From Escherichia phage tonnikala: a DNA stretch of 51,277 nt. Every line of letters starts with the position of its first letter. The first letter of the stretch is position 1. The position numbers were made by a program, and so were the translations under genes. Shown here one piece after another: positions 1,085 to 50,819 of the stretch. Below the pieces are notes generated by a model that made no database searches, was not told where the DNA came from, and worked only from the letters and a program-made list of their open reading frames with translations. The stretch lies in sequence record NC_049817.1; one strand, given 5' to 3'.

Positions 1085-1103
1085 TAGCATTTTTTGTTAA
1101 AAC
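1085..1103 (+). promoter_or_regulatory. conserved intergenic motif copy (variant TAGCATTTTTTGTTAAAAC), head of helicase operon
   Basis: Matches the repeated 19-bp motif; -10-like TATTAT about 18 nt downstream, then helicase start at 1160. Confidence 0.45.
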
Positions 1104-1159
1104 AGTTTATTGTAATGAGTCTATTATATGCTCCAAATGGCATTTTTTAAAGGTTTAAG

Positions 1160-3157
1160 ATGATTCCAAATATCGAAAAACAAATATCAGCGTTAGGCGA
1201 GGCAGTAATAAAAAGCATCCAAGAGCGATTCACGGTTGGCAATATAGTGCCTTATCCTTATCAGTGCGTTGCGTATGCCGAGATCGCAAAGCGCATGAAA
1301 AACTATGAGCATCCTTTCTTTGTTAAGGCTTCTGTGTCGGCTGGCAAAACATTGATGTTTGCGATGGTTGCTGCGCAATGCCGCAAAATGGGATTGAAAA
1401 TGATGGTCCTTGCTCGCCAGGCTGAAATTGTTGATCAGGATTCGGAAGAGATCAGCAATCTTGGCGTGCCAAACTCAATCTATTGCGCCGGACTGAAAAC
1501 AAAAAGCGCATACTTTCCGATCGTAGTCGGTTCTGAGGGCACTGTAGTAAACGGATTGTTTAAGTCGTTAGGTGATTATGTTCCGCACGTTATCGGTATT
1601 GATGAATGTCACCAGGTGGATTGGGAGGATCTCGCCGACGCGATAGAAAATAATGAATCTTACCAGCAGATGACCACTAAGAAGGATTTGCCTGTACTGA
1701 TTGGAGAAGAACAGCAATTTGATTCCAATGGCGATCCAATGTTCGGAACAGGGCGCACACAGTACACCGTAATAATCATGGAAATGATGCGCAGGTGTCG
1801 CGAGGCATACGGGCACGAATTGCGAATATTCGGTATGACTGGATCTGAGTTTCGCGGCGTGGTTCCAATACTGGTCGAAGATAAGAACAAAAAGGGATTC
1901 TGGCGTGAGCAGGTGACTAACATAGACACAAACTACTTAATCAAATTTGGTTCGGTAGTGCCAACAAATTTCGGCGACGTAGGCGACCTGGGGTATGACC
2001 TTTCAGAGTTCGAAGCCAGTAGCGAGGATGGCGTTTCAGACTTTGACGCTAAAACATTGCGCAAGATGGAAGAAAAAATCCATCAAGACGCAACAATGAC
2101 ACAGAAAATCATGGCTAAAGTCCATGAGATATGCAAAGACAGGAACGGAGTTTTAGTTACATGCGCAGGGGAAAGACATTGCAAGGAGGCCGCCGCCGCA
2201 CTGCCGCAAGGCGTTGAATACAGGATCATAACTGGCAAAACTGGAGATAATCAGCGTAAAGAGTGGCTGAGGGAGGCATACGAGGGGAAAGTAAAATACA
2301 TCTTCCAGGTACAGGCGCTTACCACTGGCGTTAACGTTCCGTTTTGGGATACTTCGGTAATACTGAGAAAGATAGGATCTCTAACATTGCTTATCCAGCT
2401 TTTGGGGCGCGGTATGCGACTGCTTAAGCAATGGCACATTGAGCAGGGATTCAAGAAAAAAGACCATCTTGTATTGGATTTTGCCGGTACTATGGATGAG
2501 TTAGGGGATTTGTATTTCGATCCAATCCTTGAGCAAGCGCAATTCCAAAAGAGATTTACAAACGGGAAAGAGCCTAAGACTTGTCCGATATGTGGAACGC
2601 TAAACAGCTTTTACGCTCGCCGATGTATGCACGTAGACGATAACGGGAAGAGATGCGAGCATTTTTGGACTTACAGAATTTGCGAGGACCAGGTAGATCC
2701 GAGAACGAAAAAGATAATCAAGCGCGGTTGCGGAACAAAAAACGACGTAGTGGCGAGAGTTTGCCGTTGTTGCGATATTTCTCTTGTCGATCCTAACGAG
2801 AAGTTAAGCGGTAAGCACTACACCAAAAACGATTGGTGCAACGTTAAATCTTTCCGCGTTGATATGACGAAAAACCAGAAAGGAATTGTTTTTTGCTATG
2901 AGCTTGAGGCCAACGGCGACACGTTCAAGGCATACGAAAGATTTTTCCCTGAGTCAGAAAGCAACATTTGCCGGACGATATGGAGAAAAATAGCATTGCA
3001 GCACATACCGGATCGCAAGATTGCTGGTATGGTGGCGAGCTATAGAAATGCGCGTAAAATAATGTCATACGCTCATCACATCATGCCTCCTGTACGCGTA
3101 ACGCATCGCAAAAACGGCAAAGGTGAGGATAACATTGCAAAACGGGAGTTTGTTTAA
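1160..3157 (+). CDS. SF2 DNA helicase with C-terminal zinc-finger region
   Basis: 665 aa; Walker A SAGKT, motif II GIDECHQ, C-terminal CPICG...C...C cysteine clusters. Confidence 0.8.
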   Translation: MIPNIEKQISALGEAVIKSIQERFTVGNIVPYPYQCVAYAEIAKRMKNYEHPFFVKASVSAGKTLMFAMVAAQCRKMGLKMMVLARQAEIVDQDSEEISNLGVPNSIYCAGLKTKSAYFPIVVGSEGTVVNGLFKSLGDYVPHVIGIDECHQVDWEDLADAIENNESYQQMTTKKDLPVLIGEEQQFDSNGDPMFGTGRTQYTVIIMEMMRRCREAYGHELRIFGMTGSEFRGVVPILVEDKNKKGFWREQVTNIDTNYLIKFGSVVPTNFGDVGDLGYDLSEFEASSEDGVSDFDAKTLRKMEEKIHQDATMTQKIMAKVHEICKDRNGVLVTCAGERHCKEAAAALPQGVEYRIITGKTGDNQRKEWLREAYEGKVKYIFQVQALTTGVNVPFWDTSVILRKIGSLTLLIQLLGRGMRLLKQWHIEQGFKKKDHLVLDFAGTMDELGDLYFDPILEQAQFQKRFTNGKEPKTCPICGTLNSFYARRCMHVDDNGKRCEHFWTYRICEDQVDPRTKKIIKRGCGTKNDVVARVCRCCDISLVDPNEKLSGKHYTKNDWCNVKSFRVDMTKNQKGIVFCYELEANGDTFKAYERFFPESESNICRTIWRKIALQHIPDRKIAGMVASYRNARKIMSYAHHIMPPVRVTHRKNGKGEDNIAKREFV

Positions 3158-3576
3158 TGGCTATAACTGATAAAGGCGATTATCTTGAGTTTTACGAAAG
3201 GGATCCAACCGACACGAGAAGGGAAGTTAATCACCAGATAGATAGTTTTCAGTGGTTGACTTATGCTCATCCTTATTTGCTGGCGTGGCATACGGTAAAC
3301 GAGAATGAGAAGTCTAAAGTAACGGCGATGATTGATCAGCAGTCCGGCTTGGTTAAGGGAGTAAGCGATTTCATCATCCTGATTGGTTTAAACGGAAAAT
3401 ACCCCTTTGCAGCGATTGAGATCAAACGAGTGAATAAATCAGGCAAGGGGAAAGCATCACCAGTCAGCGATGAACAAAAGGCTTTTTTGCGTCGCGTTCG
3501 CAGCTTAGGAGGATTCGCTGCGGTAGCCTACGGATTCAATCAGTTTAAGTTGGCTATTGAATACATGCTTAAATAG
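3157..3576 (+). CDS. VRR-NUC domain nuclease (PD-(D/E)XK fold)
   Basis: 139 aa; D...EIK core (DFIILIG...AAIEIKR); start overlaps helicase stop (TAATG). Confidence 0.6.
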   Translation: MAITDKGDYLEFYERDPTDTRREVNHQIDSFQWLTYAHPYLLAWHTVNENEKSKVTAMIDQQSGLVKGVSDFIILIGLNGKYPFAAIEIKRVNKSGKGKASPVSDEQKAFLRRVRSLGGFAAVAYGFNQFKLAIEYMLK

Positions 3577-3592
3577 CACTTTTTGTTAAAAC
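3574..3592 (+). promoter_or_regulatory. conserved intergenic motif copy TAGCACTTTTTGTTAAAAC
   Basis: TAG of motif is the stop codon of the VRR-NUC gene; GC hairpin and CATAAT follow 18 nt downstream. Confidence 0.45.
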
Positions 3593-3656
3593 TGGCGCGA
3601 TGGATTGCGCCATAATTCAATAACACGAGATGGCTTTTAATAGCGGAGAAATGAAA

Positions 3657-4382: not shown

Positions 4383-4386
4383 CACG

Positions 4387-4644
4387 ATGAAAAAAGAGAG
4401 AAGCGTTTATTTAAATGAAACTGGCGAATGGTTGTTATTTCGCGCTATGGTGTGCGATGCACTTGATAAAAATCCTAACGTGAAAAAGATGATTGATTGC
4501 GATCCGTGGGAATTTTCAAGCGCATTAGATATGAGCTTTGAGGAGACAAGAAAACTCCCGCTTGAAAAATGGCACGAACAAATCAGAAATGACATGCAAG
4601 AGTTTGTCGATTCGTGGAATTTTCAGCACGGAATGATCCACTAA
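4387..4644 (+). CDS. hypothetical protein
   Basis: 85 aa ORF, tightly packed after the methyltransferase gene. Confidence 0.45.
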   Translation: MKKERSVYLNETGEWLLFRAMVCDALDKNPNVKKMIDCDPWEFSSALDMSFEETRKLPLEKWHEQIRNDMQEFVDSWNFQHGMIH

Positions 4645-4663
4645 TAGCACTTTTTGTTAAAAC
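4645..4663 (+). promoter_or_regulatory. conserved intergenic motif copy
   Basis: Immediately follows TAA stop; hairpin GCCCGGC...CGGGC and CATAAT downstream. Confidence 0.45.
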
Positions 4664-4719
4664 GCCCGGCCTAGTGTCGGGCATAATTATTTCAACGAAG
4701 CAAACATGAGGAAATAAAA

Positions 4720-10201: not shown

Positions 10202-10253
10202 TCGTTAGCTTCTCCTTTGTGGGCCGTAAATTTTAACGGCCCAATACTACCCC

Positions 10254-10272
10254 GTTTTGTCAAAAAGTGCTA
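10254..10272 (-). promoter_or_regulatory. conserved intergenic motif copy (minus orientation, variant)
   Basis: Reverse complement reads TAGCACTTTTTGACAAAAC; TAG is the stop codon of the 10270..10491 gene. Confidence 0.4.
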
Positions 10273-10491
10273 TTTGATCCGCTCTATTGCAACCAGAAGT
10301 CGATCAGGCTGGCGGTCGCTGTAGCATTCTCCTGTAATCCCATCCTTAAACGTAAAGTAAAGCGCCTTATGATATGAAAAACCAATCAGCCAACCTACCG
10401 CCGTTTTTTTGATGGGCCTGACTATATCGCCAGGCTTGAAAGTCTTTGTGGTAGAATGCGTTACTTTGTAACGGTTTTCACTGTTTATCAC
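10270..10491 (-). CDS. hypothetical protein
   Basis: 73 aa; 4-nt overlap with upstream gene. Confidence 0.45.
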   Translation of the reverse strand: MINSENRYKVTHSTTKTFKPGDIVRPIKKTAVGWLIGFSYHKALYFTFKDGITGECYSDRQPDRLLVAIERIK

Positions 10492-10874: not shown

Positions 10875-10927
10875 GATCAGATCTCCTTTGTTTGTTCGAT
10901 GTGATTATGCCAGGTTTTTACACCTGG

Positions 10928-10946
10928 CTTTTAACAAAAAGTGCTA
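10928..10946 (-). promoter_or_regulatory. conserved intergenic motif copy (minus orientation)
   Basis: Reverse complement TAGCACTTTTTGTTAAAAG; overlaps stop of the methyltransferase-like gene. Confidence 0.4.
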
Positions 10947-11654
10947 TTTTGAGTTTGACTCAAAGATGGCGCGAGCAAAGCCGCGCGGAGTGAGGGAGCG
11001 GATCATCTTTGTGCGCGATGACTTACCGCCAGTTTTGGCCCAGCCTGGATTATCTTTGTCTTCCTCTTTCGGCAGGATTAAAGCGCGCGGAGGAATAACA
11101 AAGCCGTTGCCAGTCCAGAGGCACGTTTTCTTAAAATAGCGATCCCGTGCCGGAATAATATCAGGGAAGTCGGGATGTTTATCATCTTCCGGCAGATAGC
11201 CAGCGTAATCGCACGGATGGAACGTATAATCAGGCTTACGCCATAACGTTGACAACTTGCCAACCGGATTTTCGATCATGTAAGGAACACCGAAATAATC
11301 AGCTATATCAGCCGCGATTCTGCAAGTGTCGGCGGCCTCATCCTGGAATGATGGATTCTCAAGGCGTTTTTTGGCCCAATGGCGAGATCCGCTATTTGCA
11401 AGGTCGGTGCATGGTGGGAAGGCCATAATAAAATCAGGATTGCCCCACTCATTATTGATTGCCTTAACATAAAAAGCATCATCAATCCAGACGTTAACGT
11501 ATTCGATATTCTCATGCTGTATGCGCACTGACTGGTAATCACCGTGATCGCCACCGTCAGCATTAAAGCAAATGCACTTATAGCCATTATCAGCCCAATC
11601 TTTAACGGCTTTACCAGATCCATCAAATAGGGAGAATATTAAACCTTTATACAT
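10944..11654 (-). CDS. DNA C5-cytosine methyltransferase-like protein (short, atypical)
   Basis: Motif I-like SLFDGSG, catalytic Pro-Cys (AFPPCTD), ENV-like MIENPVG; start set at MYKG with GAGG RBS. Confidence 0.55.
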   Translation of the reverse strand: MYKGLIFSLFDGSGKAVKDWADNGYKCICFNADGGDHGDYQSVRIQHENIEYVNVWIDDAFYVKAINNEWGNPDFIMAFPPCTDLANSGSRHWAKKRLENPSFQDEAADTCRIAADIADYFGVPYMIENPVGKLSTLWRKPDYTFHPCDYAGYLPEDDKHPDFPDIIPARDRYFKKTCLWTGNGFVIPPRALILPKEEDKDNPGWAKTGGKSSRTKMIRSLTPRGFARAIFESNSK

Positions 11655-12908: not shown

Positions 12909-12963
12909 CTTTAAATCCTCGTTTGTTGTCGATGCGGTAAATATACCAACTTACCGCATACGA

Positions 12964-12980
12964 CTTTTAACAAAAAGTGC
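12964..12980 (-). promoter_or_regulatory. conserved intergenic motif copy (minus orientation, variant)
   Basis: Reverse complement GCACTTTTTGTTAAAAG, directly after the stop of the 12984..13391 gene. Confidence 0.4.
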
Positions 12981-12983
12981 TTT

Positions 12984-13633: not shown

Positions 13634-13690
13634 TTTGAAAATCCTCTGTTTCGTTTCGATGCGCTTACTATACCAATCAGCAGCGCATCG

Positions 13691-13709
13691 TTTTTAACAA
13701 AAAGTGCTA
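13691..13709 (-). promoter_or_regulatory. conserved intergenic motif copy (minus orientation)
   Basis: Reverse complement TAGCACTTTTTGTTAAAAA directly after TAA stop of the 13711..13974 gene. Confidence 0.4.
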
Positions 13710-13710
13710 T

Positions 13711-14936: not shown

Positions 14937-14994
14937 TGCTATCTCCTGAGCGGTTCGTTTCGATGTGTGTAATGTACCCGATCAGGTGGCCTGA

Positions 14995-15013
14995 GTTTTA
15001 ACAAAAAGTGCTA
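14995..15013 (-). promoter_or_regulatory. conserved intergenic motif copy heading the leftward early operon
   Basis: Reverse complement TAGCACTTTTTGTTAAAAC, then 18 nt, then TACATT (-10-like), then RBS and ATG at 14936. Confidence 0.45.
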
Positions 15014-15036
15014 TTTGACGGTTAGCGCCAGGATTG

Positions 15037-15135
15037 TGATCGAAATAATCAGAAGTAATCATTCGTAATCGAATCACGTCAAAATGATGATTGCCTTTGC
15101 AAATTTGATGAGAAAAGTAATCACGTTTAATCATT
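15037..15135. repeat. iteron-like cluster of TAATC-containing short repeats
   Basis: TAATC pentamer five times in about 90 bp (GTAATCA, CGTAATC, GTAATCACG, TTAATCA), beside the divergent promoter hub. Confidence 0.35.
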
Positions 15136-15569
15136 GGTTGCAGGGGAGATAGTGAAACCTTCCCCTCTTGCCTCACTTTTCCGCCTGGCTGTCAGTGGCT
15201 GTTGTCTTTTGTTCGCCCCTGTTACCGATTTCAGGCGGCGTGTTTCCGCGAGGTTTTCCGGTGTAGCGAAAACGGAAAAAACAAAAAAAATCCTATATAA
15301 TACATTGAAAATAAAGATTATTTATTTATATATATCTATAATGTTTTCTTTTTGTTCTCACTGTTACAGTGCTTTTTGCTGGGTGTGGTGTGGTTGTGTG
15401 TTGGTATATATGGATAGTTGCGCGCGCGGCGGATTGCATATGTATATATACTTTTTCCGGCGGATTGCGTTAACAGCGTGAACAGAAAAATAACAGCCCT
15501 GAAATCAACAACTTGCGCATGATTTTGTAGTTTTTCGATATTGGTAACGTTTTGAATACAACAAAAACA

Positions 15570-15597
15570 TTGACACGCACCAAATAGCTTTTATAAT
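15570..15597 (+). promoter_or_regulatory. sigma-70-type promoter for rightward early operon
   Basis: TTGACA (15570-15575), 16-nt spacer, TATAAT (15592-15597); about 30 nt upstream of the first rightward gene. Confidence 0.55.
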
Positions 15598-15628
15598 GCG
15601 CCAACAGTCAACAACTGGAGGAAAGGAA

Positions 15629-16093
15629 ATGGAACAGAAGACCACTAAGGACTATTGCGATTGGCTTCGCGAGCTTGGTCGCCGCCTGGCTAGTGGCGAT
15701 ATTGAAGAGTATAAAATGTCACTAATTGACCTGGCCGGAATGTTAAGCGGTGACGACTGCTACAAGATCACGCGCAGTTCATCCTACAGCCGGACCATTA
15801 TCAACCGCGTTCCAGAAGTAAGGGCCGCAGGTCGGGTAAGCATCAAGGTAGAGGAAACGGAAGATGATAAATTTTACGTTTTCCGCATGGTCCGAGAATC
15901 GAAAAGGAAAATCATCACGCCCGAAGAATTGCCAGCCATCAAGGCAAGGGCGATCAAAAAGTTTGCCGATCGCTTACTGGCAGCAATCCCGAACATCGTG
16001 GACCTGGAAGGGGATAAACTGGCTGGAGCTTGTGAGGGCGTAAGCCGCTACCAGGATATGATCCGCGAAATCATCAAAGAGGAGGAGCAATAA
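15629..16093 (+). CDS. hypothetical protein, first gene of rightward early operon
   Basis: Start set at MEQKTTKDY with GGAGG RBS; the track start at 15596 lies inside the promoter -10. Confidence 0.55.
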   Translation: MEQKTTKDYCDWLRELGRRLASGDIEEYKMSLIDLAGMLSGDDCYKITRSSSYSRTIINRVPEVRAAGRVSIKVEETEDDKFYVFRMVRESKRKIITPEELPAIKARAIKKFADRLLAAIPNIVDLEGDKLAGACEGVSRYQDMIREIIKEEEQ

Positions 16094-16365
16094 TGAAAAA
16101 GGCGTTAATCGGCGTTTTGGTGGCAATGGCATTCCTGACCGGATGCAAAGAAGATGGCGCGCATGTTGGCAATGTGCAGATGGCTAACCCTGGCGATGAC
16201 TACAGCGTAAGGGAGCTATTCACCGCTGACGGTTGCACCGTTTACCGATTCTATGACGGTCGCACTGTTTACTTCACCAACTGCAAGGGCACGACTAGCT
16301 GGGAAGTGTCGAAAAGCAATGGCAAAGGCACGAAGACAGAACATATGACCGTCGAGACAAAATAG
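16093..16365 (+). CDS. small lipoprotein
   Basis: Signal peptide with lipobox (MKKALIGVLVAMAFLTGC); 90 aa. Confidence 0.55.
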   Translation: MKKALIGVLVAMAFLTGCKEDGAHVGNVQMANPGDDYSVRELFTADGCTVYRFYDGRTVYFTNCKGTTSWEVSKSNGKGTKTEHMTVETK

Positions 16366-16381
16366 CACTTTTTGTTAAAAC
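16363..16381 (+). promoter_or_regulatory. conserved intergenic motif copy
   Basis: TAG of motif is the stop codon; hairpin GCCAGGC-GCGAA-GCCTGGC then CATAAT 18 nt downstream. Confidence 0.45.
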
Positions 16382-16437
16382 GCCAGGCGCGAAGCCTGGC
16401 ATAATAGCCTCATCGAAACGAGATTGAGGAAACAAAA

Positions 16438-16824: not shown

Positions 16825-16825
16825 A

Positions 16826-16844
16826 TAGCACTTTTTGTTAAAAC
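16826..16844 (+). promoter_or_regulatory. conserved intergenic motif copy
   Basis: Directly after TAA stop; CATAAT 18 nt downstream. Confidence 0.45.
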
Positions 16845-16922
16845 TCAAAAGCGATAACCAGGCATAATAAATCACATAGGGCGGCACGGCGTCGCCCACA
16901 AAACCAATCAGGAGAAAGCATC

Positions 16923-17891: not shown

Positions 17892-18044
17892 ATGGCTACC
17901 TGGATTTTGCTGATTCTTATGATTGATGGCGGCGTTGACCATATCGAAATGAATAGCCAGCAATCTTGCATTGAGGCACGAGAGCAGATCAAGAACAACA
18001 ACAGGTTTTATGCGTACACTCACACGCTATGTATTAAGAAATAG
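17892..18044 (+). CDS. hypothetical small protein (50 aa, below track cutoff)
   Basis: ATG after GAGGTGAGAG; hydrophobic N-terminus MATWILLILMIDGG; stop TAG is part of the next motif copy. Confidence 0.3.
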   Translation: MATWILLILMIDGGVDHIEMNSQQSCIEAREQIKNNNRFYAYTHTLCIKK

Positions 18045-18060
18045 CACTTTTTGTTAAAAC
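18042..18060 (+). promoter_or_regulatory. conserved intergenic motif copy
   Basis: Followed 17 nt downstream by TATAAT inside a GGCCAGG...GGCCC inverted repeat. Confidence 0.45.
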
Positions 18061-18113
18061 TCAAATGTTGGGCCAGGTATAATGGCCCTGCTTTCAACGA
18101 AGGAGATAAAACG

Positions 18114-18562: not shown

Positions 18563-19273
18563 ATGAAAAAATACACTTTCGAACTGTGGGGCAAGAAGTA
18601 CGAATTAATCACCAGCAAGCCGATTGTTATCGTTGACCTGGACGGAACACTATCGGACGGATCGCATCGTTTGCATTTGCTGCCAACTGAAAACTTGCAC
18701 CTTACGGAATCGTGGCGCGAGTTTAACAGGGCCGCCGCCGGAGATTCACCGATTAAAAGCACTATCGCGGTTATTAACGGTTTATGGGTGTCGGGATTTG
18801 CCATCGTCATCTTGACCGGACGCAGCGACGAGGTTCGCTATGAAACCTGCAAATGGTTGAATGAGAACGGCGTGAAGTTTGACGAAATCATCATGCGCCG
18901 CCAGGAGGACAACCGAAAGGATACGGTTATTAAAGAAGAAGCCTTGCGCGCTATTGGCCTGGACAACATTGTTTGCGCCTTTGACGATTCGCCGAACGTG
19001 GTTAAGCACTTCCGCAGCTTGGGGATCACAACCTATCAGGTCACGGAATACGACAAGCCACACGCTCACATACAATCTCACGGCGTGGAATCAATAAAGA
19101 TCACGAAGCGCGCCCTATTCGTCGGCAGCAAAGACAGCCTGGTCAATGCCAGCTTTATCAAAGGCAAGGTTTATGATGTTCATAGCCATGATAAAAACCG
19201 ATTCTTTTTGTGGGATGAAAAAGGTTTTGGCTGGTGCTTTGAACACGACGACGGCGATTTTGTTAATGCGTAA
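18563..19273 (+). CDS. HAD-superfamily phosphatase, polynucleotide 3'-phosphatase-like
   Basis: HAD motif I VIVDLDGTLSD, motif II ILTGRSD, motif III K...AFDDS; extra C-terminal domain of about 70 aa. Confidence 0.6.
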   Translation: MKKYTFELWGKKYELITSKPIVIVDLDGTLSDGSHRLHLLPTENLHLTESWREFNRAAAGDSPIKSTIAVINGLWVSGFAIVILTGRSDEVRYETCKWLNENGVKFDEIIMRRQEDNRKDTVIKEEALRAIGLDNIVCAFDDSPNVVKHFRSLGITTYQVTEYDKPHAHIQSHGVESIKITKRALFVGSKDSLVNASFIKGKVYDVHSHDKNRFFLWDEKGFGWCFEHDDGDFVNA

Positions 19274-19292
19274 TAGCACTTTTTGTTAAAAC
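19274..19292 (+). promoter_or_regulatory. conserved intergenic motif copy
   Basis: Directly after TAA stop; TATAGT 18 nt downstream within a GGGCTTGCGG...AAGCCC hairpin. Confidence 0.45.
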
Positions 19293-19347
19293 ATCTCAAC
19301 GGGCTTGCGGTATAGTAAGCCCATCAACAACAAACGAGGATTAAATC

Positions 19348-20187: not shown

Positions 20188-20778
20188 ATGAAACGAGACA
20201 TTATCATCCTTAATGGGCCTCCAGGTTGCGGGAAGGACACTATTGCAGCTTACCTAACAGGCCATCGTTACCCAGCGGTCAAGGCGTCATTCAAACAGCC
20301 GATGTTCGATATTGCGTTTTCCATGCTGGGCGTGTACCGATACGATGAATTTATGGACCTGTACAACGACCGAGAACAAAAAGAAAAGCCTCAAGTTATT
20401 TTGGGCGGCAAGTCACCTCGACAATTCATGATCTGGATTAGCGAGGATGTAATGAAGCCAGTTTTTGGAGATCACTATTTCGGGCGTCGAATGGTTGAAG
20501 AGATTCACGAGATGTACCGAGATTTGGCGGTTGTGATCAGTGATGGCGGATTCCCCGAAGAAATCAAGCCGCTCGTTAAGGCTGGGCATGAGTTGCATAT
20601 TTGCCGATTGCATCGCGACGGATTCACGTTTGCTGGCGATTCGAGAGACTATATTGACCTGAGCGGTTATCACTATCGAATCCATCACTATGATTTCCAC
20701 TTGCAGGACGGCAAGCCTGAACTGGCTGTAAACGAGATCGTCAATGCAGTCAAATGGAAGCACACACAGATTAAATAG
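20188..20778 (+). CDS. P-loop nucleotide kinase, deoxynucleoside monophosphate kinase-like
   Basis: Walker A ILNGPPGCGKDT at N-terminus; overall layout resembles phage dNMP kinases. Confidence 0.55.
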   Translation: MKRDIIILNGPPGCGKDTIAAYLTGHRYPAVKASFKQPMFDIAFSMLGVYRYDEFMDLYNDREQKEKPQVILGGKSPRQFMIWISEDVMKPVFGDHYFGRRMVEEIHEMYRDLAVVISDGGFPEEIKPLVKAGHELHICRLHRDGFTFAGDSRDYIDLSGYHYRIHHYDFHLQDGKPELAVNEIVNAVKWKHTQIK

Positions 20779-20794
20779 CACGAATTGCTAAACG
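20776..20794 (+). promoter_or_regulatory. conserved motif variant (TAGCACGAATTGCTAAACG)
   Basis: TAG is the kinase stop codon; hairpin GCGGGG...CCCCGC then TATAAT. Confidence 0.4.
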
Positions 20795-20848
20795 CGGGGT
20801 TATCGGCCCCGCTATAATGCGCGCATCAACAAGTAAGAGGAAATCACA

Positions 20849-21778: not shown

Positions 21779-22069
21779 ATGGCAAACAAAACTTACCGCA
21801 AACTACTGGTTAACGCTTTTGAAAACATCGCGCAGTCTAACAAGTGGAACGACTCTAAACACTCGCCAGTCACAATGAAGCGCGCCGGATTCAAAAATGC
21901 TCGTTCATGGGCGCGAGCTTTCGCAGCTTGCTATATGCCGGATGGTGGGCTAGGAACGATGAACGATTTTTTGATCAACATGATAGAGGAAGCGGCGCGA
22001 GAGGATCGACCGCTGACACAGCGAGATTTTGACGACTTCGCGCGCGATGAGCTTTACTATCTGAGCTAA
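21779..22069 (+). CDS. hypothetical protein
   Basis: 96 aa. Confidence 0.45.
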   Translation: MANKTYRKLLVNAFENIAQSNKWNDSKHSPVTMKRAGFKNARSWARAFAACYMPDGGLGTMNDFLINMIEEAAREDRPLTQRDFDDFARDELYYLS

Positions 22070-22088
22070 TAGCACTTTTTGTTAAAAC
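22070..22088 (+). promoter_or_regulatory. conserved intergenic motif copy
   Basis: Directly after TAA stop; GGGCATTTGATAAAGTGCCC hairpin with -10-like box downstream. Confidence 0.45.
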
Positions 22089-22143
22089 TTCCGCAAGGGC
22101 ATTTGATAAAGTGCCCTATTGAAGCGAAACAGAGGAAAGCGCA

Positions 22144-24114: not shown

Positions 24115-24120
24115 AAATCA

Positions 24121-24145
24121 CCCGCCGAACGGCGGGTTTTTTATT
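24121..24145 (+). terminator. rho-independent terminator
   Basis: CCCGCCG-AAC-GGCGGG hairpin followed by TTTTTT. Confidence 0.6.
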
Positions 24146-24155
24146 GCCCGTTGTC

Positions 24156-24164
24156 TGGTATAAT
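24156..24164 (+). promoter_or_regulatory. extended -10 promoter candidate upstream of packaging genes
   Basis: TGGTATAAT matches TGnTATAAT; about 30 nt upstream of the terminase small subunit start. Confidence 0.35.
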
Positions 24165-24720: not shown

Positions 24721-26288
24721 TGATCATATGGGAAGATTTGACGGCGGCGCAAAAGCGAGCCATTAAAGAAATCAGTGAGCATTCATTCGAAAAGATGATC
24801 AGAATCTGGTTCCAATTATTGCAGGGGCAAAAATTCCAGAGCAACTGGCATTTTAGCTTATTGTGCAGTGAGGTAGAGAAGATCATCAATGGAGAGTCGC
24901 AGAATGTGATTTTCAACATTACGCCAGGTAGCGGCAAGACTGAGATTTTCTCGATCCACATGTCACCCTACGCGTCATTGAAAAGCCGGAAAGTGAGAAA
25001 CCTTAACCTTTCGTTTAGTGATGGCCTTGTCCAGCAAAACAGCAACCGGATAAAGGAGATTATTGGTTCTCCTGAGTGGCAAGAGCTATGGCCTGGAAAA
25101 CTGGCAAAGGCGAGCGCTAAAGATCTGATAGTCACCGAAGGCGGCAAGGTTAAATTGCAAGTTAACTCACGTTCTATTGGCGGCCAGGTAACAGGTTTGC
25201 GTGGCGGCTATATGGATGATGGTTTTACTGGTATGCTGGTTCTTGACGATCCAGACAAGCCGGATGACATGCTTTCTAAGGTCAAGCGCGAGGCTATTCA
25301 CATGCGGTTAAAAAACACAGTGCGATCGCGTCGAATGAAAGACACCACGCCAATCGTTATGGTGCAACAGCGACTACACGTTAATGATTCCACTTGGTTC
25401 ATGCTTAATGGCGGGATGGGTGGTATTGAGTTTAAAGTCGTGAGCATTCCGGCGCTGGTTACGAAAGAATACCGCGAAACGCTTCCTGATTGGTTGAAGT
25501 CTGAATTTGATCGTGATGTGCTGTCAAGTAAGCCAGTGATGATAGATGGTGTTGCTCATTATTCATTTTGGCCTGCGAAGGAAAGCGCGGAGGAGTTGCT
25601 CGCATTGCGCAATGCAGATCCTTACACGTTCGCCAGCCAATACCAACAGCAACCAATCGCGCTGGGCGGGAACGTGTTTAAAACAGAGTGGTTCCAGTAT
25701 TACGGCAGCGGCGAAAAATGCGCACTTCCTAAACCGGATCGCTTTGAATACACATTTATTACTGGAGATACCGCGCAGAAGGCCGGAGAGCTTAACGACT
25801 ATTCAGTTTTTTGTTATTGGGGGATGTATAAGAATCGCGTTTACTTCATTGATGGCATTCGCGGAAAGTGGGAAGCGCCGGATCTTGAATTAAATTTTAT
25901 TGCCTTCGTTAACCAGTGCTGGAAGCGCAATAAGGAGTGTGGCAGCTTGCGACGTATCCACATTGAGGATAAGGCCAGCGGCACGGGTTTGATTCAGGGG
26001 GCCAAAAAGAAGATCCAGATTGATATAAATCCCGTTCAGCGAAGCAATGACAAGGTAACGCGAGCAATGGACGCCGCGCCAGTGATGAGGGCAGGACGTG
26101 TGGCGCTGCCAGAAAATCACCCAATGCTGCCTGAGATACTGGCAGAGGTTGCAGCATTCACTTTTGATGATTCTCATCCCCATGATGATATTGTCGATAA
26201 TATAGTTGATGCTGTTAACGTCGAAATGAATTTGGCAGATGATCCGGTAGCAAGGATGAAAAAGCTGGCAGGTCTACGCAATAAATAG
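24720..26288 (+). CDS. terminase large subunit
   Basis: 522 aa; Walker A-like ITPGSGKTE in N-terminal ATPase region; precedes portal. Confidence 0.8.
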   Translation: MIIWEDLTAAQKRAIKEISEHSFEKMIRIWFQLLQGQKFQSNWHFSLLCSEVEKIINGESQNVIFNITPGSGKTEIFSIHMSPYASLKSRKVRNLNLSFSDGLVQQNSNRIKEIIGSPEWQELWPGKLAKASAKDLIVTEGGKVKLQVNSRSIGGQVTGLRGGYMDDGFTGMLVLDDPDKPDDMLSKVKREAIHMRLKNTVRSRRMKDTTPIVMVQQRLHVNDSTWFMLNGGMGGIEFKVVSIPALVTKEYRETLPDWLKSEFDRDVLSSKPVMIDGVAHYSFWPAKESAEELLALRNADPYTFASQYQQQPIALGGNVFKTEWFQYYGSGEKCALPKPDRFEYTFITGDTAQKAGELNDYSVFCYWGMYKNRVYFIDGIRGKWEAPDLELNFIAFVNQCWKRNKECGSLRRIHIEDKASGTGLIQGAKKKIQIDINPVQRSNDKVTRAMDAAPVMRAGRVALPENHPMLPEILAEVAAFTFDDSHPHDDIVDNIVDAVNVEMNLADDPVARMKKLAGLRNK

Positions 26289-26305
26289 CACTAATTGCTA
26301 AAAAG
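26286..26305 (+). promoter_or_regulatory. conserved motif variant (TAGCACTAATTGCTAAAAAG)
   Basis: TAG is the terminase stop codon; TATAAT follows, then a terminator hairpin. Confidence 0.4.
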
Positions 26306-30885: not shown

Positions 30886-30910
30886 CTAATAGCATAAAAA
30901 AACATTGCAC

Positions 30911-30928
30911 GTTTAACAAAAAGTGCTA
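30911..30928 (-). promoter_or_regulatory. conserved motif copy in reverse orientation upstream of capsid gene
   Basis: GTTTAACAAAAAGTGCTA on + strand, followed by terminator hairpin and capsid RBS. Confidence 0.4.
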
Positions 30929-30935
30929 TCATCTA

Positions 30936-33934: not shown

Positions 33935-34597
33935 ATGCACTTGCCTAATGGTTCTCAAATTTTCATCGGCGTTAATATGGGTGAGCCAATTAGCGCGACT
34001 CAAATCAGCAATGCTGATAATCCTGTTTTTACAACCGAAAACACTCAAAGCATCCAAAAAGGCGCTTATGTTCTTATTGAAACATCTTCCTGGGGCAAAC
34101 TGGTTAGTCGTGTGTTGCGAGTAAAGGAAGTATCTGATAACGCAAGTGTAACTCTTGAAGGAGTAGATACAACCGATCAGAACGTGTTTCCGGCTGGTTC
34201 TAATACAGCAACCTTCCGAGAAGTAAAATCATGGGTAGAGATTCCTTGCGTACAGGATCTTGCGCAGGACGGAGGCGAGCAACAGTATTACACTTATCAG
34301 TGTTTGGCTGATGACCAGGAGCAGCAGTTACCGACATACAAGAGCGCAGTTTCTCTTACCTACACCTTCGCGCATGAATATGATAATCCGATTTATCCGA
34401 TCTTGCGCGAGGCTGAGGAATCCGGCGACGTAACCGCTTTGCGTATGTACGTTCCGAAAGCTAAAGAGATGCGTTGCTGGGCTGGCGTATTGTCCTTTAA
34501 TGACATTCCGCAAACCACTATGAACGAAATGGAAACTGTTTCCCTTTCCGTATCTCTGAAAGGTCGATTCACGTTCTTACCTTCTGACGTTAAGTAA
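33935..34597 (+). CDS. major tail protein
   Basis: 220 aa with strong AAAGGAGG RBS, directly upstream of the chaperone/frameshift pair and tape measure. Confidence 0.6.
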   Translation: MHLPNGSQIFIGVNMGEPISATQISNADNPVFTTENTQSIQKGAYVLIETSSWGKLVSRVLRVKEVSDNASVTLEGVDTTDQNVFPAGSNTATFREVKSWVEIPCVQDLAQDGGEQQYYTYQCLADDQEQQLPTYKSAVSLTYTFAHEYDNPIYPILREAEESGDVTALRMYVPKAKEMRCWAGVLSFNDIPQTTMNEMETVSLSVSLKGRFTFLPSDVK

Positions 34598-34602
34598 AAC
34601 AA

Positions 34603-34624
34603 GGGGCGTTGCGCCCCTTTTTTC
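34603..34624 (+). terminator. rho-independent terminator
   Basis: GGGGCG-TTG-CGCCCC hairpin plus TTTTTTT after major tail gene. Confidence 0.5.
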
Positions 34625-34662
34625 ATTCCTGTAAAATCAATCTATCAAATAAATTAATTCCA

Positions 34663-34681
34663 CTTTTAACAAAAAGTGCTA
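34663..34681 (-). promoter_or_regulatory. conserved motif copy in reverse orientation abutting RBS of tail chaperone gene
   Basis: CTTTTAACAAAAAGTGCTA followed directly by AAGGAG and ATG at 34697. Confidence 0.4.
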
Positions 34682-34696
34682 TAAGGAGATCTTGAG

Positions 34697-35014
34697 ATGG
34701 CAAAGATGAAACTAACGTTAGGCCCACTGCCTGATTTTAAACTGCCTGTTTCTTTCGTGCTTCCAAATGGTGATGAGCAAGTTATTGTTTTCACTGTGCG
34801 CCACAAGAAGGCAAGCGAGATTCACGAACGATACACGGCAGAAAAGCCGATGAGCGACGTAGAAATGATCACCTTCCTTGCTTCCGGTTGGGATCTGGAA
34901 GATGAATTTAACGAGGAAAACGTTGCTAAATTGCTGGATTATTACCCTTCTGCGTCATTATCGCTGACTGGTCATTATATGAAAGCACTTGCGGGGCAGC
35001 GGGTAAAAAACTAA
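34697..35014 (+). CDS. tail assembly chaperone (gpG-like)
   Basis: 105 aa directly upstream of tape measure; ends at slippery site. Confidence 0.65.
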   Translation: MAKMKLTLGPLPDFKLPVSFVLPNGDEQVIVFTVRHKKASEIHERYTAEKPMSDVEMITFLASGWDLEDEFNEENVAKLLDYYPSASLSLTGHYMKALAGQRVKN

Positions 35015-40536: not shown

Positions 40537-40543
40537 AAAAATA

Positions 40544-40565
40544 CCCGCCTTGCGCGGGTTTTTTT
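40544..40565 (+). terminator. rho-independent terminator
   Basis: CCCGC-CTTGC-GCGGG plus TTTTTTT. Confidence 0.45.
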
Positions 40566-40614
40566 GTGCCTTTATAATGTGTAAACCAAGAAACAGCACA
40601 AAAGGTTAAAAGTC

Positions 40615-45239: not shown

Positions 45240-45288
45240 TACTCCTTAGTTGTCGTTGCCTGTAACTATACACGATCCGACAAGCGGC

Positions 45289-45306
45289 GTTTAGCAAAAA
45301 GTGCTA
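45289..45306 (-). promoter_or_regulatory. conserved motif copy (minus orientation, variant) heading leftward operon
   Basis: Reverse complement TAGCACTTTTTGCTAAAC, then 18 nt, then TATAGT, then AAGGAG RBS and ATG at 45239. Confidence 0.45.
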
Positions 45307-45677
45307 CTTGTTATTTTTTGTTTTTCGGTGTTATCGAATTTAAGACGGCGTAAATTTAGCTCAAATTTTAGCCAACATGAGAGCGATAAACAATCAATAA
45401 AATAGATATATACATATAAAATCAATAGTTTATTTATTTATGTATGTATATTTGTTTTTTCTTGTTATCTGTGTTTCTTGTGGTTTTGGTTGTTTGTGGT
45501 GATTTTTCTTTCTGAGTATCTGTATGTGCCATCATTCATGTGTATGTATATAATCCGGCGTATCTGAGAGAACAAAGGGAACAAGAAAAATAACACATAT
45601 TAATCATTGACTTACATTTCAAATTTGTTTTCTTGCAATCTAAGAACGTTTAGAAAACAGAAAAAACAAAACAACTA

Positions 45678-47124: not shown

Positions 47125-47781
<657 letters not shown>

Positions 47782-47786
47782 TAAAC

Positions 47787-47806: not shown

Positions 47807-47824
47807 GTCATAGGAGAAAACAAA

Positions 47825-48271
47825 ATGCACGTTATTACAGGTGAGATCCGAAAAGAGCCAAAAGTAAAGCAAATGCCTAACGGTAGCACGCTATATGTTG
47901 TTGAGCTTTCCGAACGATATAAAGACCGTGAAGGCAATTGGCAGTATACAAACTATGTATTTTTCTTTAACGCGAAAACAGACGGCCTGAATGGTTGGTA
48001 TGCTGAGGCGTTCCAGGTAGGCAAGGTTATTTCTGTTTCCTGCGATACCTTGCGAGTTGAAACGCGAGAATACAACGGAAAGATTTACAGCACCGTGCAG
48101 CCTGGCGGATTTGCAAACTTGCTATTTAGCCAGCGTGGGGAAAGCCAGCAACAATATCAGCAGCGCACTCAAGGTGGATGGGGGCAACCACAACAGCAAC
48201 AAATCCCTCAACAGCAACCACAGCAAAGCAATCAGCCGCCGATTGACTTTGATGACGATATACCTTTCTGA
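47825..48271 (+). CDS. ssb: single-stranded DNA-binding protein
   Basis: OB-fold-like N-terminus, Gln/Pro-rich linker and acidic tip DFDDDIPF; AGGAG RBS before ATG at 47825. Confidence 0.8.
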   Translation: MHVITGEIRKEPKVKQMPNGSTLYVVELSERYKDREGNWQYTNYVFFFNAKTDGLNGWYAEAFQVGKVISVSCDTLRVETREYNGKIYSTVQPGGFANLLFSQRGESQQQYQQRTQGGWGQPQQQQIPQQQPQQSNQPPIDFDDDIPF

Positions 48272-48276
48272 TAAAA

Positions 48277-48296
48277 AGCCCCGCACATGCGGGGCT
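48277..48296. terminator. bidirectional rho-independent terminator
   Basis: AGCCCCGC-ACAT-GCGGGGCT flanked by A-run and TTTTTTTT; between converging ssb and tail fibre genes. Confidence 0.6.
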
Positions 48297-48301
48297 TTTT
48301 T

Positions 48302-50782
48302 TTAGTCTGTATCTGTTGGATTGTTGATTAATTTCGCTACCGCTTTTCTTAGATCATCTATCTCTTTCTCCATTTTCTCAATTTTCCCCCCCATGTAGAC
48401 CATAGCGCAAGCCATATCTGTTAGCATAACATTGCTATCTAGCGCCAATGTGTCATCATTTCTGTCAGTTTCAATCTGACGATCAATGTATTCCTCACCA
48501 TTTTCATCAACTCCAATCACATCCTCAAATACCGGCGAGCCTGGAACTAGCTTTACATATTGTGGATCGATTTTTAACAGATCTTGAGCTATCAGGCCAA
48601 AACGTTGAACATCAGATCCGTTATATTTAAACATAGCAGGCAACCATTGCATTACGCGATCGTAGCTTTCCTTTCCGTCTGTGTATTTAATGTCGTGTTT
48701 CAAATCACGATCGGACGTTGGGTTTTTTGCGAAAATAAAAGAACCTCCGCCGAAACCTTGCTCCCATGTAGTAATGTCACCAGCATATGTAAAATGATAA
48801 GCACGATGAAAACGACCATCACCATTTAACTTTAGCGCTACATCAGGCCACGCGGCATTTCCTTTTGATACAACACCAAGCCCAACTCGCATATGATAAC
48901 CGCCAGTTGATAAAGAGCCACCAGAAACAACAGGACTCCAACCAGAGTCATTGTTTGTAACTGAGTTTGCGTAGTATGGCGCCCCCATGTGATCCCATTC
49001 AAGACCCCATGCGCCTTGTACACACTGACCATTAAAACCACGCTGCGCAGTCATGTATCCACCGTAATCATTGTGGAATCTAAACTCTTTGACGTCAGAT
49101 CCTTGATTATTAACCAATACTTTTACATGGGCTATATCAGTAGAGCCGCCTCTTACAGCGCCAAATTGCCAGAATCCACCGTACCAGTTGCCTTGTAGCA
49201 AGTTTACCCATCCATAAGCTCCACCATCTCCTGATGCGTTTGTCAGGTAAATATCTTTATCACCTCCTTCGGCAGTTCCGCAGCCAACTCGCATTGCCTG
49301 TTTTGCAGTAATCCACCCGTTAGAGTAAAGCCCACCAGTTCCATTGATTTCAACATGATGTAGACCTGATAACTTTGAGTTTTCATCAAATTGCAGGTAT
49401 CCGTGCTTGTCTCCTTCATTGTTTGCTGTATGTATTGTTGTTTTCCATAATCCGCCTTGCTTTTCAGCGTATACCCGAGAATAACCCCGAGAAACACCAT
49501 CATCACCCTTTGCGTGTAAATTCAAGATTCCACTAAGCTCAGCAGCTCCAGCATATTGATGAACAAGATCTAGATCGGAAAATCTTGGTGTTTGTCTCTC
49601 ACCCAATCCAAGACCATCCCTAAACAAAAGAATATCGCGGATAACATAATCATTAATCGCATAGAATCCTGTGTTAGTTAAAACCATTGCCCTTACTTCT
49701 GTACATTCAGCGGCAGGATCTGTCGCACCAAACTTAAAAACTGTTGCGTTTTCAACAAAACCATCTGGCGCATAATCTGATGTTGGGACAACAACATCAA
49801 TATTGCTTTCACAGTGAATGCTAACAGGAAATGCGCCGCCTCGAATGTAAACTGCAAACGCCTTTTGTGTTGCTTTCGCTGGCATCAAAATAGAATCAAT
49901 AGTTCTTTCATCTTTCTGATAGATGGTGAAATTACCATAAACGCTATCAACGCCGTCAGACCATCCAGAAGTACGAGCATAGCCAGCAAATGACGCTGAA
50001 TTATAAGGATAATCACCAGTCCTATTACTAGTTGAGATCTGGAAGAAAACGCCTAATTGACTCATATCACCAACGTTCTTTTCTTGGAAGATCACAGGGT
50101 AATATTTTGCATCTTCCGCACCCGCTGGAGCGTTTACAGTTCTTTCGTATTTCCAGCCCTGATAACCTACAACTGCTTGATGCGCTCTATCAGCTTCCAT
50201 TTCGGCGCGGTTTGCTTGCTGCAATGCGTTGGCTGAATGGTTAGCAGCCTGATCTCGCGCCGAGTTAATTTCCGCTACCGCTGAATCTTTGATCTGTTGC
50301 GTTTGTTGCATGTAGCCTTTTGCTGATTCAGCATGATTAAAAGATTGACCAGCCCATGTTTGCGCGTTTTGTTCGCTTTGTGCTGCTGATGCCGCATTTC
50401 TCACTGTTTCATCACGTAAGTCAATCAGCTTTTGCAGATCAAAGTTCCTGAAAAATTCAATTGCTTCCTCTATCTGCGTTTCCTTGCTTTGATAGTAGCG
50501 CAGCGTTTCAGCTACATCTTGCGCCAGACCGTCAACAGTGATCGAGTCATGCAGTAAAATGATGTAATTGCTTCGCGCAATTTCAGATCCGCCAGTTGTG
50601 ATGGCGCGGATTTGCGTATCACTAATAACCTCACTGATTACCGCCGCCTGAAAAGGGGCGTCAATAAAAAATATTGTCGCACCTGGGCGAATCAAGGTTA
50701 ATTGCTCACGCCATTTTGTGTCGTAACCAGTTACATAACCTTGCGCGTCCATAGACGCTTGGCCTTGTCTGTAAATTGCCAT
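48302..50782 (-). CDS. tail fibre protein with C-terminal intramolecular chaperone (peptidase S74) domain
   Basis: 827 aa from ATG with AGGAGG RBS; C-terminal segment (DRDLKHDIKYTDG...RFGLIAQDL...) typical of S74 auto-cleaving chaperone domains. Confidence 0.7.
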   Translation of the reverse strand: MAIYRQGQASMDAQGYVTGYDTKWREQLTLIRPGATIFFIDAPFQAAVISEVISDTQIRAITTGGSEIARSNYIILLHDSITVDGLAQDVAETLRYYQSKETQIEEAIEFFRNFDLQKLIDLRDETVRNAASAAQSEQNAQTWAGQSFNHAESAKGYMQQTQQIKDSAVAEINSARDQAANHSANALQQANRAEMEADRAHQAVVGYQGWKYERTVNAPAGAEDAKYYPVIFQEKNVGDMSQLGVFFQISTSNRTGDYPYNSASFAGYARTSGWSDGVDSVYGNFTIYQKDERTIDSILMPAKATQKAFAVYIRGGAFPVSIHCESNIDVVVPTSDYAPDGFVENATVFKFGATDPAAECTEVRAMVLTNTGFYAINDYVIRDILLFRDGLGLGERQTPRFSDLDLVHQYAGAAELSGILNLHAKGDDGVSRGYSRVYAEKQGGLWKTTIHTANNEGDKHGYLQFDENSKLSGLHHVEINGTGGLYSNGWITAKQAMRVGCGTAEGGDKDIYLTNASGDGGAYGWVNLLQGNWYGGFWQFGAVRGGSTDIAHVKVLVNNQGSDVKEFRFHNDYGGYMTAQRGFNGQCVQGAWGLEWDHMGAPYYANSVTNNDSGWSPVVSGGSLSTGGYHMRVGLGVVSKGNAAWPDVALKLNGDGRFHRAYHFTYAGDITTWEQGFGGGSFIFAKNPTSDRDLKHDIKYTDGKESYDRVMQWLPAMFKYNGSDVQRFGLIAQDLLKIDPQYVKLVPGSPVFEDVIGVDENGEEYIDRQIETDRNDDTLALDSNVMLTDMACAMVYMGGKIEKMEKEIDDLRKAVAKLINNPTDTD

Positions 50783-50800
50783 TTGTAAAATCCTCCTAAA

Positions 50801-50819
50801 TAGCACTTTTTGCTAATGA
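50801..50819 (+). promoter_or_regulatory. conserved motif copy (variant) abutting RBS of the leftward tail fibre gene
   Basis: TAGCACTTTTTGCTAATGAC on + strand, immediately 5' (in gene sense) of the tail fibre RBS. Confidence 0.4.

Follow-up and report, generated by a model that had tools for sequence, protein, structure and literature searches.

A repeated intergenic box in a T1-like coliphage resembles the host marbox and its class II promoter geometry

What is the function of a short sequence that stands again and again between the genes of a virulent phage? The question is raised by Escherichia phage tonnikala (NC_049817.1), whose 51,277 nucleotides, referred to here as the window, are apparently the whole, circularly permuted genome of a T1-like virulent coliphage (Drexlerviridae, Warwickvirus). 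The first 20 kb of the window are 97-98% identical to Escherichia phages FritzSarasin, tonijn, and vB_EcoS-95, the first of which is placed in Drexlerviridae, Tempevirinae, Warwickvirus. T1-like phages belong to the most common coliphages, are notorious as contaminants of laboratories and fermenters, and are candidates for therapy. The element in question is a 19-base repeat that, judged by its sequence, is a near-consensus copy of a host site, the marbox, which is used by MarA, SoxS, and Rob (and RamA in Klebsiella). Its setting suggests that the phage probably borrows these host activators of stress response and drug resistance to switch on its early genes.

The repeat itself has already been published for TLS, T1, and Rtp. 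A re-annotation of phage TLS in 2024 described a 21-nt direct repeat, aaATAGCACnnnTTGnTAAAA, in 18 intergenic copies that are oriented with transcription and lie about 76 nt before start codons, and reported it from T1, Rtp, and Rogue1 as well (PMC11447400). The authors found only three sigma-70-like intergenic promoters, proposed that the repeats are stoperators, enhancer-binding sites, or upstream (UP) elements, and listed their function among the open questions (PMC11447400). The repeats of the window belong to the same aaATAGCACnnnTTGnTAAAA family, including its upstream AA, its placement, and its T/G/A subtypes, and represent another genus. The TLS paper makes no mention of a marbox, a fixed -10, or stop-codon use (PMC11447400), and what is added here is the marbox identity. 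Reading the repeat as a class II marbox turns the question of its function into a few standard experiments and, if true, would name the host factor used by a major phage family.

The repeat and the marbox consensus

Allowing up to three mismatches, the 19-mer TAGCACTTTTTGTTAAAAC has 16 matches in the window, compared with 0.05 expected from shuffled sequence. Two further matches have four mismatches (26286+ and 50801+), and looser patterns add 20776+ (a GAA subtype), 40594+, and a degenerate copy at 593-612(-), for a total of 21. An earlier, sequence-only reading of this DNA had counted about 20 intergenic copies, which agrees with the looser definition. A repeat with the same architecture is found in T1 (24 copies), in TLS (22 copies), and in 32 IMG/VR loci; together with the window, these sources supplied the 256 unique instances from which the motif logo and the spacing to the -10 were derived.

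The logo extends the 19-mer by one conserved upstream A (95%), giving a 20-bp box, ATAGCAC-NNW-TTG-Y-TAAAAC, in which the three positions after GCAC are T or G, T or A, and T or A, the Y is C or T, and the closing a and c are weaker. When aligned with the marbox/soxbox consensus AYNGCACNNWNNRYYAAAYN, the site of E. coli MarA, SoxS, and Rob (PMC2064960), the logo agrees at 13 of the 14 specified positions, the exception being the last Y, and its variable positions coincide with N, W, and Y of the consensus. All 21 boxes have zero to two mismatches to this consensus. Of its 20 positions, the phage box has 15 in common with the micF box ACAGCACTGAATGTCAAAAC and 17 with the mar box ATGCCACGTTTTGCTAAATC, both host boxes having been read from E. 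coli MG1655. With at most one mismatch, the E. coli-derived consensus finds 19 sites in the window, where 1.2 are expected. The MarA motif derived from chromatin immunoprecipitation sequencing (ChIP-seq), GCAnnWWnTGnnAAA (PMC12052159), has 19 exact matches, where 1.4 are expected, and 18 of the 19 are the repeats. The idea of a phage-specific promoter or activator site, which the sequence-only reading had entertained, is therefore not sustained, given this agreement with a host site and the host class II geometry.

Promoter geometry and placement of the copies

In class II marbox promoters, a forward box overlaps the -35 region, and in Salmonella ChIP-seq and cappable-seq data such promoters have a canonical -10 and no recognizable -35 (PMC12052159, PMC6900184, PMC10268841). 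The phage cassettes are built in the same way: an asymmetric 20-bp box, in forward orientation, overlaps the -35 position at a fixed spacing from the -10 and without a recognizable -35. A -10 hexamer of the form TAnnnT or CATAAT follows the box by 17-18 bp in 17 of the 21 window copies. Of the 256 instances, 151 have their best-scoring -10 at 18 bp and 46 at 17 bp, with a sharp maximum of the mean -10 score at 18 bp. The hexamers include CATAAT, TATAAT, and TATAGT, a G stands at -14 in 72% of instances, and the TAAAAC found at the -35 position has two of six matches. With the -10 numbered from -12 to -7, the box extends from -50 to -31 and is centered at about -41, with GCAC at -47 to -44 and TAAA at -35 to -32. 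In the structure of Rob with RNA polymerase at micF, Rob contacts the bases that correspond to G -47 and A -45 of GCAC (PMC9178005). Sigma-70 promoters of the canonical type show no enrichment across the early 20 kb (26 found, 37 expected). It had been argued from the letters alone that a -10-like hexamer lies 17-18 nt past the motif, that the motif takes the place of a canonical -35 in the manner of an activator site, and that it is promoter-associated rather than merely a terminator; the analysis supports each of these points, as it does the factual observations of that reading generally.

The host promoters can be compared directly. In host sequence, micF, nfo, and inaA each have a forward box, 18 bp, and then TAGAAT, TATCAT, and TATAGT, respectively, and the gap between box and -10 at fumC is ambiguous (17-19 bp). 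Martin and colleagues reportedly assigned nfo, inaA, and fumC to the class II marbox promoters in 1999. The phage boxes share with these four promoters the asymmetric box lying forward over the -35 and the spacing of about 18 bp to a canonical -10, but they differ in occurring about 17 times in a virulent genome and in having zero to two mismatches, compared with two to three in nfo and inaA. They also differ in that stop codon, hairpin, and conserved leader are joined to the box as a mobile cassette, for which binding of the activator is predicted.

Placement is similarly regular. Sixteen of the 21 copies are co-oriented with the downstream gene, with a ribosome-binding site (RBS) and ATG 70-77 nt after the motif start (the T of TAGCAC). 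The copies at 1085, 14995, and 45288 are heads of operons, just as the sequence-only reading had placed them at the heads of the helicase operon and of both leftward operons. It had also seen the TAG of the motif serving as, or abutting, a stop codon. Among the 14 copies that come after a same-strand gene, the stop is the motif's TAG in eight and a TAA 3-4 nt upstream in six. The pattern extends to related genomes, where 243 unique instances were used for statistics on upstream open reading frames (ORFs) and hairpin energy: in 144 of the 243, a co-oriented ORF of at least 40 amino acids ends no more than 30 nt from the box, and within this group the box TAG is the stop in 89 and the stop lies 1-4 nt upstream in about 38 more. 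The A that is fixed at a free position of the marbox (position 3) creates this TAG, and with the upstream A tract the resulting TAAATAG holds stops in two frames, which accounts for the extra conservation and makes the cassette portable. The copies, together with the one regulator gene discussed below, are as follows.

569..612, minus strand: ACAGCACGAATAGCTAATGA, a degenerate box that overlaps the regulator gene at its end; TAATAT 18 bp past the box, within the loop of a hairpin that resembles a terminator and precedes the primase gene; T1 and TLS hold better boxes at this position
596..1072, minus strand: Cro/YdaS-like helix-turn-helix "transcriptional regulator" (phrog_2856), divergent from the helicase promoter
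1084..1127, plus strand: box ATAGCATTTTTTGTTAAAAC, 18 bp, -10 TATTAT; head of the helicase operon, without significant hairpin
3573..3616, plus strand: box, spacer hairpin, CATAAT at 18 bp; box TAG is the stop of the VRR-NUC gene, with dam downstream
4644..4687, plus strand: box, hairpin, CATAAT at 18 bp; a TAA stop adjoins the box
10230..10273, minus strand: box (TTGACA variant), 18 bp, TAAAAT within the hairpin loop; upstream of the second helicase gene
10904..10947, minus strand: box, hairpin, TGgCATAAT at 18 bp; box TAG is the stop of the dcm gene
12940..12983, minus strand: box (AAAGCAC...), 18 bp, TATATT within a hairpin with a 9-bp stem
13667..13710, minus strand: box, 18 bp, TATAGT within the hairpin
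14971..15014, minus strand: box, 18 bp, TACATT; head of the leftward early operon, without significant hairpin
16362..16405, plus strand: box, 7-bp GC hairpin, TGgCATAAT at 18 bp; box TAG is the stop of the upstream gene
16825..16868, plus strand: box, 18 bp, CATAAT; weak hairpin
18041..18083, plus strand: box, 17 bp, TATAAT
19273..19316, plus strand: box, 18 bp, TATAGT within the hairpin; after the polynucleotide kinase gene
20775..20818, plus strand: GAA-subtype box ATAGCACGAATTGCTAAACG, 18 bp, TATAAT; no mismatch to the marbox consensus, and outside the 19-mer of the sequence-only reading
22069..22112, plus strand: box, 18 bp, TGaTAAAGT within the hairpin
26285..26304, plus strand: TAA-subtype box where the large terminase gene stops, ahead of a true terminator; -10 absent at 17-19 bp
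30910..30929, minus strand: reverse-oriented box upstream of the major capsid gene; no mismatch to the consensus, poor -10 (TATTAG); position conserved in T1 and TLS
34596..34682, minus strand: box (34663-34682), 18 bp, TAGATT, then a bidirectional terminator; reverse to the late genes, with the box adjoining the RBS of the plus-strand gene at 34697
40593..40612, plus strand: AAA-subtype box in the leader of the tail J gene, at about +9 to +28 after the TATAAT at 40573-40578, which itself comes after a terminator; overlaps the RBS and is conserved in T1 and TLS
45265..45307, minus strand: box GTAGCACTTTTTGCTAAACG, 17 bp, TATAGT; head of a leftward operon, without significant hairpin
50800..50819, plus strand: box with two mismatches in the predicted leader of the leftward tail-fiber gene, in reverse orientation; comes directly after TGcTATTAT at 50828-50836(-)

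Two of these positions have neighbors of their own. A good leftward promoter for the Cro-like regulator (TTTAAA-17-TATAAT, 1123-1151, minus strand) lies back to back over the -10 of the helicase promoter and places the reverse complement of the 1084 box in the leader of the regulator. From the minus-strand box at 34663-34682, a short RNA is predicted (about 37 nt, 34632 to about 34596) that ends in the bidirectional terminator of the major tail gene, and this arrangement of box, -10, and terminator is conserved in T1 and not in TLS.

Hairpins and the spread of the cassette

The hairpin that the sequence-only reading saw after most copies is there for most, but not for all: when the 45-50 nt after the box were folded, about 11 of the 19 copies folded had a z-score of -1.9 or lower, and no significant hairpin was found at the operon heads 1085, 14995, and 45288. 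The strength of the hairpin depends on what precedes the box. Among the 243 instances, which are related by descent and not phylogenetically independent, mean energy was -13.0 kcal/mol where a co-oriented ORF ends at the box and -8.8 kcal/mol otherwise (p = 1e-9), compared with -6.6 kcal/mol for random 45-mers. Because the hairpin is strong only where a same-strand gene ends at the motif, it can be assigned to the 3' end of the upstream gene rather than to the promoter. Orthologous hairpins differ in sequence and keep the stem. The stems vary in place, some lying within the spacer and others enclosing the -10, which argues against a consistent role in the promoter. Most hairpins have no U tract, and only one early cassette (4664-4682) passes a scan for a hairpin plus a T run, so that the combination of GC hairpin and U tract that marks an intrinsic terminator is not a general property of the early cassettes. 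Terminators are enriched in the late region (37 found, 21 expected), the T1 record annotates three of the hairpins discussed here as terminators, and there was no Rfam match anywhere in the window. We take the hairpins to be leaky terminators or 3' stabilizers of the upstream cistron.

The cassette is not confined to T1-like phages. Escherichia phage C130_2 (Hungariovirus, podovirus-like), which combines a P22-like virion with T1-like replication genes, has seven boxes, five of them followed at exactly 18 bp by TATAGT or TATACT, and its leader is closely similar to that of the window (CATCGAAACGAAC in one copy). Three T4-type phages (Pseudotevenvirus), Lw1, RB16, and RB43, likewise carry the cassette together with the leader CATCGAAACGAA, within the dexA-dda hyperplastic region. 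Two Lw1 copies contain an inserted true terminator, and in them 29 bp separate the box from the -10, a helical turn more, which resembles the spacing at forward class I sites. That one site is common to three unrelated lineages, all of which infect Enterobacteriaceae, argues for a host factor, and the presence of box, -10, and leader together in Pseudotevenvirus and Hungariovirus indicates that the cassette moves between phage families. If the boxes are indeed activator dependent, this would be an activator-dependent promoter cassette moving between unrelated phage families. A host origin of the cassette was considered and dropped, as a search of 5,426 E. coli genomes gave no meaningful match. 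An exact 22-nt match to the box region occurs in three E. coli "plasmid" records (49-76 kb), which may represent phage-plasmids or genomes of T1-like phages that were deposited under the plasmid label. Another record, OR754315.1 ("Stutzerimonas phage STP9," UNVERIFIED_ORG), is 88% identical to C130_2 over half of a 5.3-kb query and has the same boxes; its assignment to a Stutzerimonas host looks doubtful.

Small composite units of terminator and promoter have been described from hyperplastic regions of T4-type phages under the names PeSL and PmSL (Arbiol 2010; Comeau 2014, PMC4122927). The parts of PeSL, a stem-loop, a sigma-70 early promoter, an RBS, and a start codon between small genes, all have counterparts in the present cassette, which may likewise be tied to differences in gene content. 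PeSL has a normal -35 and -10 with the stem-loop upstream of the promoter, whereas here the -35 is replaced by the box and the stem-loop lies inside the promoter. PmSL uses the phage's own MotA box, whereas this cassette carries the box of a host factor. The sequence-only reading had also suggested that the motif marks cassette boundaries for gene shuffling, and for this there is modest support. When the window was compared with 35 related sequences, 18 clusters of homology breakpoints fell within 30 nt of an element, compared with 7.8 expected (about 2.3-fold; maximum of 16 in 1000 random trials), an expectation that does not control for clustering at gene boundaries in general. The enrichment, like the occurrence of the cassette in unrelated families, is suggestive of cassette shuffling.

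Candidate activators, alternative readings, and late boxes

The phage does not appear to bring its own activator of the AraC family. No homolog of MarA, SoxS, or Rob was found in the phage by tblastn (best E 1.6; the MarA query was verified against 1BL0) or among all 578 ORFs by a hidden Markov model of the three proteins (best E 0.32), and Pfam detected no AraC-type domain in 20 early proteins. The only recognizable DNA-binding protein is the Cro/YdaS-like regulator. On the host side, Rob is constitutively expressed at a high level (PMC9178005), and its activity is raised further by bile salts, fatty acids, and dipyridyl. We favor, with moderate confidence, the view that the boxes form portable class II marbox promoters that are activated by host Rob, MarA, or SoxS.

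In the order of its parts, each cassette runs from the upstream stop (the TAG of the box or a TAA just before it) through the 20-bp marbox, an 18-bp spacer, and a sigma-70 -10, often with G at -14, to the conserved leader CATCGAAACGAAAC, an RBS, and ATG. From the sequence, we infer binding, activation, and the identity of the acting paralog as follows. One activator monomer would bind GCAC and TAAA (-47 to -44 and -35 to -32), stand in for sigma region 4 at the missing -35, and touch both the alpha C-terminal domain and sigma, with RNA polymerase then opening the -10 and starting about 7 nt downstream. In unstressed cells Rob, being constitutively abundant, would be the most likely activator, and MarA and SoxS would add to it under stress. 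In RNA that reads through from the upstream gene, the hairpin would form and act as a leaky terminator or 3' stabilizer. If this is true, phage expression would be tied to the regulators of antibiotic efflux, which would matter for combining phages with antibiotics and for conditions in the gut, bile among them. The phage genome might also act as a sponge for MarA, SoxS, and Rob, and the cassette would offer a compact, inducible promoter part.

Several points weigh against this proposal. The marbox consensus is low in information content, and the match was recognized after the logo had been seen; the scans with the consensus and the MarA motif and the test of spacing do not depend on that recognition. 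Conservation of the box extends to positions where the marbox is free (A at 3, TT at 11-12). This is due in part to the TAG stop and to the TG of the ChIP-seq motif, and it could reflect a different or additional binder. Four or five late-region boxes stand outside the promoter geometry, and the model does not explain them. Under the "sequestration-dispersal" model, Rob is largely inactive in unstressed cells, so that it may be a risky activator for immediate-early genes to depend on. To our knowledge, no rob, marA, or soxS phenotype has been described for T1-like phages. A literature search gave no binding, transcription-start, or genetic data for any T1-like phage, and no paper that links the marbox, MarA, SoxS, or Rob to these phages, with older subscription papers (T1 genome 2004, Rtp 2006) lying outside the search.

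An argument can be made that the box is bound by a phage protein, either the Cro/YdaS-like regulator (596-1072, minus strand) or an unrecognized early protein, and that its likeness to the marbox is coincidence or mimicry. Such a protein could act as an activator or, like the repressor at a stoperator, could shut early genes off. The regulator has a helix-turn-helix motif and is conserved in 828 phage records, its gene adjoins a box, and its predicted leader holds the reverse complement of that box, as in autoregulated factors. In addition, half of the boxes form a partial palindrome, TAGCA-N5-TGCTA, and stoperators were among the suggestions of the TLS authors (PMC11447400). Yet C130_2 has its seven boxes, five in the same promoter geometry, without a homolog of the regulator (best E 0.31), and early promoters must fire before any phage protein exists. 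Conservation is also too asymmetric for a dimer site, on which ground the palindrome was rejected: position 4 is G in 100% of instances and its dyad partner is C in only 52%, and C5 and T9 are not complementary. The stoperators of mycobacteriophage L5 are likewise numerous, short, asymmetric intergenic sites that are oriented with transcription and often touch stop codons. They serve a temperate phage's own repressor, however, and block elongation without a fixed -10, whereas the present phage is virulent and its box lies at -50 to -31, at a fixed 18-bp distance from the -10 that is not a stoperator feature. A cognate repressor of the L5 type is not evident, with the sole helix-turn-helix regulator being absent from the box-bearing C130_2. 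Taken together, we consider a phage-encoded binder unlikely.

We give slightly less credence to host sigma-70 polymerase acting alone, with the T/A-rich box as a UP-like element or -35 surrogate next to an extended -10 and no activator. The frequent G at -14 and the T and A tracts at -43 to -39 and -35 to -32 would fit, TTAAAA has four of six matches to a -35 at a spacing of 18-19 bp, and UP elements were also suggested by the TLS authors (PMC11447400). However, conservation is highest at G, C, A, and C (-47 to -44; 92-100%), which an A/T-tract site for the alpha C-terminal domain (-40 to -60) does not explain, and the GAA subtype breaks the T tract and yet keeps the box, so that the box does not have the sequence expected of a UP element. 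The hexamer TTGTTA/TTGACA, moreover, is 22 bp from the -10. More improbable still is that the element works mainly at the level of RNA or recombination, as an intercistronic terminator, processing signal, or homology patch whose promoter activity is incidental. The hairpins after the box and their annotation as terminators in T1, the stop codons in or abutting the box, the 2.3-fold enrichment of breakpoints, and a cassette common to several phage families, as PeSL is in T4-type phages, would all be expected. Against this, some copies head operons without an upstream gene or a significant hairpin, most hairpins have no U tract and a single early cassette passes the terminator scan, and a rigid 18-bp link to a good -10 is a DNA-level property of promoters. 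Such a role is compatible with host activation of class II marbox promoters and could stand beside it as a second, evolutionary one.

A number of narrower candidates were tried and set aside. The TTGTTA/TTGACA within the motif is too distant from the -10 (22 bp) to be its -35. An extended -10 within the motif (TGnTAAAAC) would have C, G, or A and never T at -7, and would leave the downstream -10 unexplained. A sigma-54 promoter (TGGCAC-N5-TTGC) requires an invariant GG where the motif has AG, and N5 where it has N3. Likeness to a nut/boxA-like antitermination site (GCTCTTTAACAA) is weak, and the hairpin sequences vary. A T4 MotA middle promoter has its box at -30, whereas the present box is centered at about -41 and has another sequence, and Pfam found no MotA or AsiA in 20 early ORFs. 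Finally, the locus IMGVR_UViG_2974632794_000001 seemed to have the regulator and only one motif. This was attributed to poor assembly with one-base homopolymer deletions and not to a variant motif: its boxes read TTTT for TTTTT, and the match to the regulator is broken as well.

The boxes outside the promoter geometry (26285+, 30910-, 40593+, and 50800+) lack a good -10 at the class II distance, and in T1 a box overlaps the -10 of terS. Some of them lie near promoters that seem to be of another kind. The terS, tail J, and tail-fiber genes each come after a strong intrinsic terminator, with a -10 within 10-25 nt and no -35 (24120-24164 for terS, TGgTATAAT; 40543-40578 for J, TATAAT; 50828-50870, minus strand, for the tail fiber, TGcTATTAT). 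The combination of a terminator and a -10 without a -35 looks like a second, different type of promoter for late genes. Repression by a marbox that overlaps the core promoter has a precedent in pbpG, and by analogy it is a matter of speculation that the boxes at J, the tail fiber, and T1 terS are repressor-like or decoy positions. Extending this, Rob, MarA, and SoxS (RamA in Klebsiella) might be the master early transcription factors of T1-like, Hungariovirus, and RB43-type phages, with timing encoded in box placement, a proposal that we regard as doubtful. Under it, boxes at -41 would activate early genes, and boxes on or just after late promoters (J, tail fiber, capsid, and T1 terS) would hold those promoters back. 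Replication would then multiply the roughly 20 high-affinity boxes per genome and titrate the activator, which would release the late promoters and, by the same titration, blunt the mar/sox/rob response of the host. If so, early expression of the phage would be tuned by bile salts, fatty acids, salicylate, oxidants, and antibiotics.

One further stretch of the early region is of interest. The only perfect sigma-70 promoter of that region, TTGACA-16-TATAAT, is at 15570-15597, upstream of the ATG at 15630. It belongs to about 600 bp of noncoding DNA between two divergent early operons (15014-15630), which also contains an A/T-rich block and two exact copies of CGGCGGATTGC that are 31 bp apart (15427 and 15458). 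This interval may be an immediate-early promoter combined with an origin or regulatory region.

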